Assembly (NCBI GenBank): GCA_964517885.1
Contig: CAZFCT010000001.1
Location: forward strand, 1 to 27,163
Direction of reading: 5' to 3'
DNA: 27,163 nt
DNA from: Candidatus Woesearchaeota archaeon
GTDB lineage: Archaea > Nanobdellota > Nanobdellia > Pacearchaeales > GW2011-AR1
In this document: positions 15,861-27,163 of the stretch, in pieces
How the letters are laid out: each line of letters begins with the position of its first letter
Numbering within the stretch: the stretch's first letter is position 1
The notes under the pieces: model-generated
What the model was told of the DNA's origin: nothing
Databases searched by the model: none
Seen by the model: only the letters and a program-made list of their open reading frames with translations
Position numbers and translations under genes: made by a program

Positions 15861-15964
15861 TTTTATAACTTTCTTTTATTTATCTTAATTATGAAAACTT
15901 CACAATTAATTACAGGAATTATTTGAAAGTGGAAAAGCAGAAAAGGTGGAAGGGGAATAATTTT
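15825..15964 (+). repeat. 40-bp imperfect direct repeat of the GINS 3' end (15825-15864 and 15925-15964)
   Basis: gaaagtgggaaagcagataaagttgaaggggaataatttt vs gaaagtggaaaagcagaaaaggtggaaggggaataatttt: 36/40 identical, 100 bp apart. Confidence 0.93.
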
Positions 15965-15984
15965 CAATTACTCTCATTATAATT

Positions 15985-16135
15985 AAAAGCCTGTAGAGGG
16001 ATTTTACTCGCACCCGTAAAAATTGCAATAAACATTTTCGGCATTTTTGCAAACGCTCGCCCCCGACGAAATCCTTCTGATTTAAGCGAGTTCAAATCTT
16101 ACAAATATAATTTCACTTCGTTCAATTATATGAGA
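15985..16135 (-). repeat. tRNA-Thr-associated structured mini-element (copy A), ending in a 20-bp duplicate of the tRNA 3' end
   Basis: aaaagcctgtagagggattt at 15985-16004 equals 16136-16155. Core 16006-16059 is 46/54 identical to 18005-18058. Hairpin at 16105-16131. Confidence 0.88.
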
Positions 16136-16138
16136 AAA

Positions 16139-16210
16139 AGCCTGTAGAGGGATTTGAACCCCCGACCTCCGGTTTACAAAACCGATGCTCTGCCACTGAG
16201 CTATACAGGC
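16139..16210 (-). tRNA. trnT: tRNA-Thr(UGU)
   Basis: Cloverleaf GCCTGTA/TACAGGC, D arm GCTC/GAGC, anticodon loop TT-TGT-AA, T loop TTCAAAT, U73 discriminator (archaeal Thr type), no encoded CCA. Confidence 0.97.
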
Positions 16211-16226
16211 ATAATTATTTGATAGA

Positions 16227-16248
16227 ATTAATGGTTTAAAAGATTTCT
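16227..16248 (-). promoter_or_regulatory. BRE/TATA promoter of tRNA-Thr, exact 22-bp copy 1
   Basis: Minus strand AGAAATCTTTTAAACCATTAAT, ending 16 nt upstream of the tRNA. Identical to 16492-16513. Confidence 0.75.
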
Positions 16249-16250
16249 TA

Positions 16251-16478
16251 TTATAACTTCTCTATAAATTGTTGGGCTTCTTCGAAAAGTCTTTCCCTAT
16301 AAATTTCATCTAAGTTAACATGTTTCAAGTATAGGGTAGCAACATCACTTTCAAATAAATTTTTTAATTCCCCCACATGTTCTTCGTAATATTTTTTCAT
16401 AAATTCGGAGGTTACTCTCTCTTTTGGAATTTTTAATCTCTTAGCTATTGCTTCAGTAAGAAATTCATTTAGGTTCAT
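16251..16478 (-). CDS. Hypothetical 75-aa protein, cassette between two identical promoter copies
   Basis: Intact ORF with ATG 13 nt downstream of the promoter repeat (leaderless spacing). No recognisable motif. Confidence 0.6.
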   Translation of the reverse strand: MNLNEFLTEAIAKRLKIPKERVTSEFMKKYYEEHVGELKNLFESDVATLYLKHVNLDEIYRERLFEEAQQFIEKL

Positions 16479-16491
16479 TTTAATATTAATT

Positions 16492-16513
16492 ATTAATGGT
16501 TTAAAAGATTTCT
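16492..16513 (-). promoter_or_regulatory. BRE/TATA promoter, exact 22-bp copy 2 (drives the 75-aa ORF)
   Basis: attaatggtttaaaagatttct, identical to 16227-16248. Confidence 0.72.
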
Positions 16514-16523
16514 GATAATTTAA

Positions 16524-17057
16524 TTATTTCTTTTTTGCGTCTAAGATTCTTATCTCACAGAGGGCGAGAGGATAAATCTTTTTGAGTTTTATACTTAATT
16601 TTTTCTGTAACTGATTTTGTAAAATTTCTGAGAAAAGTTCTTCTGCGTTTTTTGTTTTAACATATTCTAAAAGTTCTTTTTTTGCTTCGTTTCTCAAAGC
16701 TTTTCTAACTGCTCTTGAAACTTTTCTTCTTGTAACTAAGAAAGGTTTTATTTTCAAATAAGCATCTTTACATTCTGTATCAAAAGAATCTTCGACATAA
16801 TTTGTTCCTTTTCGAACCATTCTTCTAATAAAATAAGGCATTACTTCGAGTTTTTTTGGTATTGTTGTTGCTTTTTTGTCTTCAACTTTTACATTTAATG
16901 TAAGCATAACACTTTTTCCTTTCAAGGCCCTTGTTAAATCATATTTCATAAATCTATTATTGAGTTCTTCGATTTCGTAAGCTTGCATTTGTGTTTCTTT
17001 TCCAATTATTGGAATTTCCACTTCAAAAAATTTCTTTTTTCTTTTTGCTTGTGCCAT
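16524..17057 (-). CDS. rps3ae: 30S ribosomal protein eS1 (S3Ae)
   Basis: YFIRRMVRKGTNYVEDSF, KIKPFLVTRRKVSRAVRKALR and KKIYPLALCEIR. Confidence 0.93.
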   Translation of the reverse strand: MAQAKRKKKFFEVEIPIIGKETQMQAYEIEELNNRFMKYDLTRALKGKSVMLTLNVKVEDKKATTIPKKLEVMPYFIRRMVRKGTNYVEDSFDTECKDAYLKIKPFLVTRRKVSRAVRKALRNEAKKELLEYVKTKNAEELFSEILQNQLQKKLSIKLKKIYPLALCEIRILDAKKK

Positions 17058-17058
17058 T

Positions 17059-17367
17059 TTATTCTTGTATTATCTTGCCAACTCTTCTTCCCTTTTTCTG
17101 GTATTTAGATTTTTTGCAAGTTAAGCATGTATACATTATGTTTGTTTTTTTATTTGTTTTAGTTTTTCTTTTGAATTTTGAAACTGCGGGTTTACTCCAT
17201 CTTCCTAAATTTCCAATTCCTCTGTTTTTTCCTCTAAGTTTTGCCCTTTGTTTTGAACCTCTCTTTAGGGCTCCTCTCTTTGCTCCTGTAGAAACTAATT
17301 TGATTTTCTGTTCTGTTTTTTTCTTACAATAAGGACAATATCTTTTTGTCGTTTTAGGAATTTTCAT
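17059..17367 (-). CDS. rpl44e: 50S ribosomal protein eL42 (L44e)
   Basis: True start MKIPKTTKRYCPYCKKKT at 17367 (the track extends it upstream). Zn ribbon CxxC...CxxC (YTCLTCKK). BRE/TATA-like AAAAACTTTTTAAACC upstream. Confidence 0.92.
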   Translation of the reverse strand: MKIPKTTKRYCPYCKKKTEQKIKLVSTGAKRGALKRGSKQRAKLRGKNRGIGNLGRWSKPAVSKFKRKTKTNKKTNIMYTCLTCKKSKYQKKGRRVGKIIQE

Positions 17368-17427
17368 AAAATTGGTTGTTAAAATCGGTTTAAAAAGTTT
17401 TTTATACTGCAGTCCCGCAGTTAATTT

Positions 17428-17694
17428 ATGAGAGTTCAGTTTCCAAAAGGAATGCAGAGGAAATTTTTGCAAAAAGTTTTAGAAAAAATAAATTGTCCGT
17501 CGATAAGTGAACTTGCAAATAGATTAAATTCTAATTATTCTTCTCTTAAAAATTATTTTGCTGAAGAGAGATGTATTCCTGAAAGTTTGTTTGAAGATTT
17601 ATGCTATGTTTCAAAAATGAATAAATCAGAATTTAAGTTTGATATTTTGGGAGAAAATTGGGGACAGAGCAAAGGTGGGAAAAATAAATTTTGA
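17428..17694 (+). CDS. Small HTH-like protein ending in a WGQxKGG motif
   Basis: SISELANRLNSNYSSLKNYFAEERCIP has an HTH pattern. C-terminal ENWGQSKGG. Divergent from rpl44e. Confidence 0.6.
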   Translation: MRVQFPKGMQRKFLQKVLEKINCPSISELANRLNSNYSSLKNYFAEERCIPESLFEDLCYVSKMNKSEFKFDILGENWGQSKGGKNKF

Positions 17695-17955
17695 TTATTT
17701 TGTTAAATTTAATGTTGAGTTCAAACTTGCATTTTGAAAAAGATTTGAAATTTGTGTAGGAATTATTGGTTGACTGGTAAATATTCTATAAAAAATCCAT
17801 CCAATAATTAAAATTGCTATTAAAATTAAAATTTTGTTTAGGTTATTTTTTCTCTTTTTTTGAACAAAAGCATAACCACATTTTATACAATAAGAATCTG
17901 TTAGAGAATTTGCAGTTCCACATCGAGGACAATATTTTACACCTATTCTTTTCAT
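17695..17955 (-). CDS. Zinc-ribbon membrane protein
   Basis: CPRCG...CIKCG followed by one TM helix (ILILIAILIIGWIFY). Confidence 0.8.
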   Translation of the reverse strand: MKRIGVKYCPRCGTANSLTDSYCIKCGYAFVQKKRKNNLNKILILIAILIIGWIFYRIFTSQPIIPTQISNLFQNASLNSTLNLTK

Positions 17956-17990
17956 ATAATTAAATAATTTCTTAATTTATAAATTATTAT

Positions 17991-18112
17991 AATGGTCCCA
18001 CGTAACTCGCGCCCGCAAAAATTGCATTAAAAATTTCTGGCATTCTTACAAACGCTCGGAATCGGACATCCGATTTTAGAATATTATTTCAGCTTCATTT
18101 CATTCAACTGAA
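17991..18112 (-). repeat. tRNA-Val-associated structured mini-element (copy B), ending in a 12-bp duplicate of the tRNA 3' end
   Basis: aatggtcccacg at 17991-18002 equals 18113-18124. Core 18005-18058 is homologous to 16006-16059. Hairpin at 18087-18113. Confidence 0.88.
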
Positions 18113-18114
18113 AA

Positions 18115-18186
18115 TGGTCCCACGCAGAATCGGACTGCGATCTTGTCCACGTCAAGGACACGTCTTAGCCATTGGACTATGGGACC
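18115..18186 (-). tRNA. trnV: tRNA-Val(GAC)
   Basis: Acceptor GGTCCCA/TGGGACC, anticodon stem TGTCC/GGACA, loop TT-GAC-GT, T stem CGCAG/CTGCG with atypical loop TCCGATT, A73. Confidence 0.92.
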
Positions 18187-18336
18187 TAAAAACTACCTGC
18201 GGTTTTTTACGAATTCTACAACTCCACAGGAAGTTGAAATTAATTTTACTAAAAGAATATATTTTAAAAGATTATTCCTTTTTTATAACTAACTTACTTA
18301 GTTAATTATTTATTTAATTAATTTGTTATTTATTTA

Positions 18337-26979: not shown

Positions 26980-27048
26980 AAATAATTCTAAAACTTTTTA
27001 TAGGCATAATCAATTATATTTTATATTCATAATTTATATTTTTATTAT

Positions 27049-27132
27049 GCGGAATTGCCGGAGTGGTCAAACGGGACAGACTCAAAATCTGTTGGCTCAG
27101 TGCCTACAAAGGTTCGAATCCTTTATTCCGCA
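27049..27132 (+). tRNA. trnL: tRNA-Leu(CAA)
   Basis: GCGGAAT/ATTCCGC acceptor, anticodon arm ACAGA-CT-CAA-AA-TCTGT, long variable arm, AAAGG-TTCGAAT-CCTTT, A73. Confidence 0.97.
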
Positions 27133-27163
27133 TTTCTAGAAATAAATAACTCGGGATAACCTT

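Follow-up and report, generated by a model that had tools for sequence, protein, structure and literature searches.

The GC clusters of yeast mitochondria are hairpin repeats that resemble the Rickettsia palindromic elements (RPEs). RPEs have no transposase and insert in frame in the genes of a reduced genome (PMC10969869). In Escherichia coli, tRNA-linked repeats (TLRs) lie behind tRNA and rRNA genes, and each unit ends, on its 3' side, in a copy of the gene's final 18-19 bp (Egan and Landy, 1978; Rudd, 1999; summarised in PMC8144298); they have no known function or mechanism. Insertion with long and variable duplication of the target has also been described (Nobusato et al., 2000; Furuta et al., 2010; PMC2853133). 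Here we analyze a 27,163-nt stretch of archaeal DNA (hereafter the window; contig CAZFCT010000001.1, positions 1 to 27,163, of a Candidatus Woesearchaeota archaeon) in which the intact genes for tRNA-Thr and tRNA-Val are each followed by a 54-nt hairpin, the core, lodged inside a second copy of the gene's own 3' end. We consider it quite likely that these cores belong to a mobile, selfish family of hairpins.

By analogy, the core family appears to behave as RPEs do, and would be selfish in the manner of REPs (repetitive extragenic palindromes), MITEs (miniature transposable elements with inverted repeats) and RPEs. Like RPEs, the units are short, palindromic and gene-less, have no identified transposase, and occupy a small, A+T-rich genome of an obligate symbiont, where they are found between genes, at RNA genes and, in frame, in a protein gene. 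Unlike RPEs, they have an archaeal host, an unrelated sequence and a unit of 54 rather than ~100-150 bp; their preference for tRNA ends, the long and variable duplication and the templated filler are features not described for RPEs. The likeness to TLRs is one of architecture, not homology: in both, the unit ends in a copy of the last bases of the preceding gene. TLRs are bacterial, however, show no dispersed hairpin core and go unreported at protein genes, at 5' ends or in open reading frames (ORFs). The published long and variable duplications share with ours that they are longer and more variable than the target-site duplications of transposases, come without a mobility gene and often overlap gene 3' ends or tRNAs. 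Those cases concern kb-sized bacterial restriction-modification units with repeats of 30-400 bp, whereas the core is a 54-nt archaeal hairpin with repeats of 8-73 bp and a fold-back filler. REP and REPIN repeats are likewise short imperfect hairpins with a conserved foot motif, strand-specific, multicopy and placed at gene ends, and Y1 transposases do occur in this archaeal family, but here they are not co-distributed with the repeats, and REPs lack long target duplications.

The core hairpin and its junctions

The two window cores (Table 1) align without gaps and are identical at 46 of 54 positions. Behind each intact tRNA gene the minus strand carries, in order, a T-run, an 8-bp hairpin, a spacer, a segment A', the 54-nt core and a segment B'. 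A' is a second copy of tRNA sequence that stops within the T-arm, and B' resumes there and extends to the end of the tRNA plus a few bases; the tRNA segment that abuts the Val core on its 5' side is GTCCGATTC. A first-pass annotation of this DNA had reported the same architecture behind both tRNAs, the gap-free alignment and the duplicated gene ends. ARAGORN and Rfam tRNA calls, combined with repeat comparison, bear it out on each count, with duplicated ends of ~20 nt for Thr and 14 nt, 12 of them exact, for Val. The Val palindrome has a 7-bp stem and a 2-nt loop and ends 1 nt from the core, and the minimum-free-energy fold of the whole Thr element contains a closing helix made with its inverted copy 'x'.

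The cores are members of a wider family. nhmmer located a third copy, on contig C21, and nhmmer together with Infernal gave four copies in the 503-kb metagenome-assembled genome (MAG) under study (G000; other G-numbers denote related genomes and L-numbers fetched loci), with E-values of 1e-9 to 1e-18. Chance is excluded as the source of the likeness between cores, because there are only four copies in 503 kb and they reach such E-values. Two covariance models, R1 built from three copies and R2 from 36, matched 24 of 151 related genomes, every one of them within a single GTDB family (Nanoarchaeota, DPANN). Cores occur in 12 of the 16 genus genomes and in 11 other genera of the same family, in 1-37 copies per genome (37 in G003, 20 in G013), and their number differs between sister species. 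Among the 151 relatives, neither model found copies outside this one family or in the other four of the 16 genus genomes. The window yielded three tRNAs alone, and no core match, against Rfam at gathering threshold, and E-value searches of 25 core loci against Rfam 15 found tRNA, signal recognition particle (SRP) RNA and RT-16 near cores and nothing on the cores themselves. We also found no description of such elements in the DPANN literature that we searched. The family is apparently undescribed, as the first-pass annotation had supposed, and its idea of a family of miniature, structured elements is supported.

An alignment of 67 distinct copies provides strong evidence for the hairpin: 85% of cells are paired, and 11 of the 16 main-helix pairs show changes on both sides. 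None of 500 shuffles reached these values, the signal was lost when one partner was slid by 1-3 columns, and 32 copies gave the same covariation result. Because U.G pairs, which become C.A on the antisense strand, predominate in four stem columns, the helix forms on the sense strand only. The arms are imperfect inverted repeats of ~17 bp, the element holds no ORF, and inserts span 60-150 bp. Tandem G.A/A.G motifs occur twice in most copies, at the foot (CGAG.../...CGAGT) and again in the middle (CACGARTGC/GCAAYGAGTG); in the G000 subfamily, A-U pairs replace the inner motif. The minus strand of the Val core folds at -16 kcal/mol (z -2.1 relative to shuffles), and the plus strands of both window cores give no fold. 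It had been proposed from the two window cores that substitutions in the stem preserve pairing. True covariation appears across the family only: stem changes between the Thr and Val cores are one-sided, with 0 compensatory pairs, and the Thr core has a C.A mismatch.

We considered and rejected several classes of guide and catalytic RNA. The alignment has no C (RUGAUGA) or D (CUGA) boxes of a C/D box small RNA (sRNA), and hammerhead and group II domain V motifs do not fit. An H/ACA-like guide on the opposite strand has a topology (a 5' guide for the 3' side of the target) that at first looked fitting; the stem cannot form on that strand, there is no ACA, and the Val and aIF2-beta copies leave no target bases unpaired. 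The flanks have the same sense as the tRNA, which is not what a guide sRNA would show. For a bridge-RNA/IS110-like guide, the flanks are again target-sense, the intact target is uninterrupted and no recombinase was found (PF01548 was not searched).

The junctions show how cores relate to their targets. Since A' and B' are contiguous in the target, the core adds no small duplication of its own, and both of its ends are always precise. Across the 67 copies, from genomes of 29% G+C, the flanking base is G or C at position -2 in 54 and at -1 in 57, and T or A at +1 in 63. The target duplication (B plus trailer) covers 8-73 bp, with measured lengths of 8, ~9, 12, 14, 20, 22, 36, 56 and 73 bp; its border usually falls in the T-rich bases just past the gene at tRNA 3' ends, and in the TATA box at the 5' end of tRNA-Leu. 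Most tRNA cases have filler that separates the first repeat from the core. This filler ends 3' in A', which copies in direct orientation the 8-25 nt to the left of the point of insertion, and immediately before A' stands the reverse complement of its start. Stems of at least 6 bp that end no more than 3 nt from the core are present at 13 of 21 tRNA-linked copies, and stems of at least 7 bp at 48% of tRNA-linked copies compared with 16% of random 40-nt windows. The inverted piece tracks the border of each duplicate, whether T-stem, T-loop, D-loop or SRP sequence, and hence was made from the target at each event rather than carried by the element. An antisense T-loop guide was discarded for this reason: the inverted segment follows the left border of each duplicate (TGTGGAC at the T-stem; palindromes at SRP RNA and the D-loop), which marks it as a fold-back product.

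We infer that the 'second tRNA 3' end' is a target duplication and that no att site is involved. The first-pass annotation had taken the duplicated ends as marks of tRNA-directed integration. Archaeal integrative elements of the SSV and pNOB8/pTN3 types do duplicate tRNA 3' ends as attL and attR, and the T-loop region is a known sublocation for integrases. The cores could, on this account, be footprints of site-specific integration by a tyrosine/SSV-type integrase acting in trans, with the repeats as attL and attR, or remnants of viruses or plasmids. Direct repeats of the tRNA 3' end do flank the insert downstream of an intact gene, coreless partial 3'-end repeats lie behind tRNA-Thr in G001, G003 and G007, and G000 has two Phage_integrase matches, away from the elements. 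The anatomy nonetheless makes integration very unlikely. The core interrupts the duplicated segment (A'[core]B') instead of lying between a pair of complete att copies; the repeat is also variable in extent rather than fixed, and runs into unrelated trailer or promoter DNA. The same core is hosted by more than 18 different tRNAs, by protein genes, SRP RNA, leaders and an in-frame ORF. The small inserts carry neither integrase nor cargo, and G003 and G013, which have the most copies, lack any integrase match.

The T-loop position also matches known sites of non-canonical introns, and many tRNAs of G000 contain introns. Still, it is extremely unlikely that the core is an archaeal intron of the bulge-helix-bulge type, or that it is a proto-intron held in a spare 3' exon and able to reach the T-loop of the working gene by recombination. 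The core ends form no bulge-helix-bulge, as the helix runs unbroken to C1-G53 with tandem G.A; removal of the core in silico restored no tRNA at any of the 67 sites; R2 matches no annotated tRNA intron of G000; and cores occur in non-tRNA DNA as well.

Table 1. Parts of the Thr and Val elements, with positions in the window
Feature	Position	Strand	Support
tRNA-Thr(TGT), intact host gene and source of the duplicated T-loop and 3' end	16139..16210	-	ARAGORN; Rfam RF00005, 73.2 bits
Thr trailer hairpin ('hairpin1'), 8-bp stem, loop GAACGAAGTGA; separate module outside the core family	16105..16131	-	Sequence
Thr inverted copy 'x', GATTTGAACTCGC; forms pairs with TTAAATC where A' begins, or with the core 3' end and start of B'	16086..16098	-	
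Thr A', diverged direct copy from anticodon loop to 5' strand of T stem; ends GTCGGGGG; abuts core	16060..16085	-	tRNA comparison
Thr core hairpin, 54 nt, slightly decayed (C.A mismatch)	16006..16059	-	R1, 82.1 bits; R2, 66.3 bits
Thr B', AAAATCCCTCTACAGGCTTTT, distal copy of the target duplication	15985..16005	-	Repeats the last 17 nt of the tRNA and the first trailer Ts, ~20 nt
tRNA-Val(GAC), intact host gene	18115..18186	-	ARAGORN; Rfam, 55 bits
Val trailer hairpin1, loop TGAATGAAATGAA	18087..18113	-	Orthologous hairpins with other stems in G004 and G014
Val palindrome AATCGGA-tg-TCCGATT(c): inverted and direct copy (A') of the T-loop segment	18059..18077	-	
Val core hairpin, 54 nt, folds to the family consensus	18005..18058	-	R1, 82.5 bits; R2, 71 bits
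Val B', TACGTGGGACCATT, second tRNA-Val 3' end	17991..18004	-	13/14 match to gene end plus TT; 12 exact

Three side observations concern other tRNA flanks. The trailer hairpin keeps its loop, GAAYGAARTGA, constant while its stem varies, and is found behind tRNAs in G003, G004, G014 (coreless) and G082. This loop is similar to a motif of a second element, core-2 (GTTTCATTTGGC..GACGAATGAG..GAACGWRGTGAGSCCC), which lies behind tRNA-Ile(TAT), tRNA-Arg(CCT) and tRNA-Tyr outside the window (G000:C2:39612-39740, G000:C4:24500-24629 and G000:C20:941-1030) and also at L061, the tRNA-Thr locus of G009. The plan of core-2 is alike: an inverted T-loop copy, the element, and an 18-36-nt repeat of the tRNA end and trailer. 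At the edge of the window, tRNA-Leu(CAA) (27048-27163 and beyond; G000:C1:27134-27300) has a scaffold gap (Ns) on its 3' side, after which the last ~25 nt of the gene and the trailer reappear; this is either a gap artefact or a further cassette.

Host sites, vacant sites and the search for a partner enzyme

The family prefers tRNA 3' ends and is not confined to them. A same-strand tRNA precedes 23 of the 67 copies, with its 3' end 19-125 nt away, at 21 tRNA loci with 18 anticodons; by our own estimate, in which ~0.4% would be expected for random place and orientation, tRNA 3' ends are favoured ~80-fold. The A'[core]B' split of the gene's own T-arm and 3' end is visible at nearly all tRNA-linked copies, although some are diverged. 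The earlier description of the element as tRNA-targeting as such is not supported. At aIF2-beta (Pfam PF01873), the final ~40 bp of the gene are duplicated and the C21 copy interrupts the duplicate, at a site that is also occupied in G008. In three genomes the duplicated 3' end of SRP RNA is interrupted by a core that runs antisense to the RNA. G003, and G082 from another genus, each carry a duplicate of a tRNA-Leu promoter and of the gene's first 17 nt, broken at the D-loop by a core antisense to the tRNA. Many copies lie within a repeated promoter/5'-leader module, beside the Shine-Dalgarno of various genes, and others in the loops of further copies or of other hairpins, some with a plain 8-nt repeat (TGGGYGGG[core]TGGGYGGG). 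At one G013 locus (L006:1276-1959(-)), two units are inserted in frame in a conserved 227-aa protein, homologues of which have one unit or none at exactly the same point elsewhere; the host is a conserved DPANN protein of ~190 aa without a Pfam family, and the core-encoded units, of which there are 0, 1 or 2, measure 15-18 aa. The element is often in or beside the loops of stem-loop-forming, heavily transcribed DNA, namely T- and D-loops, the SRP RNA end, 5' leaders and the loops of other copies.

The leader module itself is ~70 nt long (TTTATCAGCCYTGAGC..GGGAAGGTCAGGCGAACGAAACCGGAGGTGTCGTCGC-ATG) and precedes many unrelated genes (L004, L005, L013, L022, L023, L041, L049 and L056; in G003, G007 and G008). 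It looks like a portable promoter/leader/Shine-Dalgarno unit, with two alternative sites of core insertion. Copies are also distributed unevenly between strands on two contigs of G003 (C4, 8 plus and 2 minus; C7, 0 plus and 4 minus), and the strand bias on a 623-kb contig of G013 does not reverse across the copy-bearing part.

Comparison of orthologous sites reveals presence and absence with exact borders, as seen with mobile elements. The ribosomal protein region between tRNA-Thr and tRNA-Val is syntenic in 17 of 17 genus genomes. G000 alone has a core behind tRNA-Thr; in most relatives the adjacent gene follows directly, and in G009 another small hairpin is present together with a 17-nt repeat of the tRNA end. 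Behind tRNA-Val, G000, G004 and G009 have the core, G014 has the loop-conserved hairpin alone and the remaining genus genomes have nothing. Empty sites in close relatives, which the first-pass annotation had called for, are thus present at both tRNAs in most of the genus. The population itself is represented in public metagenomes of three independent studies. In one of them, a contig of bioreactor run X5 joins 15984 to 16136, skipping 151 nt (15985-16135), with 20 nt that fit both sides. This tRNA-Thr allele lacks exactly the element and one 20-bp repeat, and its depth is similar to that of the filled form. Decay is also evident: a core remnant (GATTTAAAC TTCAAACTC CGAGAGTTTTTTTT) lies behind tRNA-Arg(TCT) just outside the window (G000:C1:30440-30540), and the same tRNA in G013 is followed by an entire copy. 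Different species share occupied sites at aIF2-beta (G000 and G008), at tRNA-Leu(TAA) (G000 and G003) and at SRP RNA (three genomes); such copies are either old and conserved or the result of repeated re-insertion.

Because independent metagenome contigs span the Val element, that locus is not an assembly chimera: a 22.8-kb soil contig (2025 run X3, ~98% identical) covers 16136-18250, and a 388-nt contig from a wastewater run covers 17754-18141. This clears the concern for one of the two loci. The filled Thr element is present on low-depth contigs in three runs, and among the contigs listed none is shown to span it whole. In the X3 soil strain, ~755 nt of unrelated sequence separate tRNA-Thr from the downstream gene, compared with 173 nt here (15925-16135 region); the 3' flank of tRNA-Thr is a rearrangement hot spot.

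These presence and absence patterns bear on a functional role. The cores could be an RNA module that is co-transcribed with tRNAs and mRNAs and held by selection as an L7Ae-type binding site, a 3'-end stabiliser, or a processing or termination signal. Such a module would account for the strong covariation on the transcribed strand, the two conserved tandem G.A/A.G motifs, the fold kept by same-site copies across species, and the location in tRNA trailers and in 5' leaders beside Shine-Dalgarno sequences. It would not account for presence that varies between sister species at essential genes, an empty allele within the population, decayed copies, antisense copies at SRP RNA and tRNA-Leu 5' ends, or 0, 1 or 2 units in frame in an ORF. 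Moreover, the hairpin is no canonical K-turn, since the 3-nt bulge is missing, and it was not found in 4 of the 16 genus genomes. We judge a functional module unlikely, and take the same view of the idea that the duplicated gene ends are part of its working structure.

The first-pass annotation had looked to a co-distributed recombinase or transposase. Our searches, with four Pfam families in MAGs that are 82-92% complete, found none. Y1 transposases (PF01797) are common in the family and about equally frequent in core-positive (7 of 24) and core-negative (35 of 127) genomes; G000, G003 and G013 gave no match, and R2 detected no core at the ends of 11 Y1 loci. Tyrosine recombinases (PF00589) had no match in G003 or G013, and TnpB had none above the cut-off in the same two genomes. 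For reverse transcriptase (RT; PF00078, RVT_1), two of the 17 genomes of the genus gave a match, whereas G000, G003 and G013 did not. No autonomous partner with the same ends emerged from the Y1, integrase, TnpB and RT searches; DDE families were not searched individually. Among 256 Nanobdellota proteomes, RAYT (REP-associated tyrosine transposase) is reported to be the only transposase KEGG orthologue, with no DDE transposase present (preprint 10.64898/2026.05.13.725050). We rejected IS200/RAYT, RT, tyrosine integrase and TnpB as partners for lack of co-distribution. The family was not assigned to the MITEs, with which it shares inverted repeats, multiple copies and the absence of coding sequence, and from which it departs in having neither a fixed target-site duplication nor an autonomous partner. 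A REP/REPIN-RAYT system was dismissed as well, given that Y1 genes do not co-occur with cores and no cores are present at Y1 loci.

Rfam RT-16 RNA (61 bits) lies ~1 kb from a core at L016:364-571(-), and the locus is also represented by L198 and L199 (G011:C1:48478-49160). The RT gene beside it seems to be broken into parts or interrupted (1 TAA). This locus is probably a retroelement, of the diversity-generating type or another, and only 2 of 17 genus genomes have it.

The rarity of RT weighs on RNA-mediated copying, in which core RNA would be joined to transcripts (or the polymerase would jump from one RNA to another) and cDNA laid down at the end of the transcript in a manner like target-primed reverse transcription, with 5' truncation and snap-back. 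Variable duplication, a truncated A' and fold-back are classical signs of retroposition, as at the junctions of LINEs and SINEs. In addition, the sense strand alone folds, with its U.G pairs; copies nearly always read in the direction of the host transcript; and the duplication usually stops, on its distal side, at or just past the gene end, in oligo-T where archaeal transcripts end. We nevertheless consider this route quite unlikely: copies at SRP RNA and at tRNA-Leu 5' ends are antisense, those at tRNA-Leu take in promoter DNA that is not transcribed, and both core ends are invariably precise.

A candidate route of insertion

Overall, we favour, with moderate confidence, the explanation that the core is the unit of a gene-less, non-autonomous, selfish family of hairpin repeats that has been mobile in one Nanoarchaeota family. 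The junctions suggest a way in which it could move. The active form would be the sense single strand, a single-stranded DNA (ssDNA) hairpin, which would be joined to one strand of the target at places where the DNA is frequently unpaired or folds out into stem-loops. As the complementary strand is made, B, the core and a few bases of A would be copied before synthesis snaps back, which would produce the palindrome. Re-priming in the A/T-rich stretch past the gene would copy the target again and leave a duplication of variable length. Host replication and repair functions, or a not-yet-recognised enzyme, would be required; the element itself encodes no protein. Only outcomes that retain an intact single-copy essential gene would survive; the tRNA, SRP RNA and aIF2-beta genes are single-copy and essential, which would explain why the core is always in the spare copy. 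We put forward snap-back and template switching as a tentative scheme for insertion. A broader claim, which we regard as doubtful, would be that the mobile DNA is nothing but a single strand-specific hairpin that spreads without a dedicated transposase, integrase or RT, exploits ssDNA loops together with host replication and repair, and leaves split copies of gene ends behind.

A number of observations count against a mobile selfish family or against this manner of insertion. The co-orientation of nearly all copies with the host transcript would also fit an RNA-level role or an RNA intermediate, and there is a contig-wide strand bias, with 16 minus and 3 plus copies over 470 kb of the 623-kb contig G013:C3. 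Same-site copies preserve the hairpin through many compensatory changes, and host-function selection could be the cause. The Thr core alone, with its C.A mismatch, folds no better than shuffles (z +0.5). Loss of an insert by deletion across the 20-bp repeats would explain the empty X5 allele equally well. About one in three tRNA-linked copies have a weak palindrome or none. Our searches may have missed an enzyme gene in MAGs of 82-92% completeness. Finally, the template-switch scheme is built solely from the anatomy of the junctions, because no transposition event, intermediate or enzyme was observed.

Hairpin repeats and their possible part in the evolution of DPANN genes

DPANN archaea have some of the smallest cellular genomes and, to our knowledge, are thought to be almost free of transposable elements. 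In this family, dozens of hairpin copies come and go between sister species at essential genes, including tRNAs, SRP RNA, a translation factor and promoter leaders. There are practical consequences. The cassettes cause assembly breaks, false tRNA pseudogenes and odd in-frame insertions in DPANN proteins, and a covariance model of the core would improve annotation. If spread without an enzyme proves true, the family would be a minimal form of selfish DNA and a natural read-out of template switching in archaeal replication.

The origin of non-canonical tRNA introns and of split and permuted tRNA genes is an old question in archaea. The split copies of gene ends beside the core are intermediates of a kind from which such introns and split or permuted tRNA genes could arise. 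If a class of mobile DNA made of a hairpin alone does exist, the split copies would be raw material for tRNA introns, split tRNAs, trailers, leaders and protein insertions in DPANN archaea.

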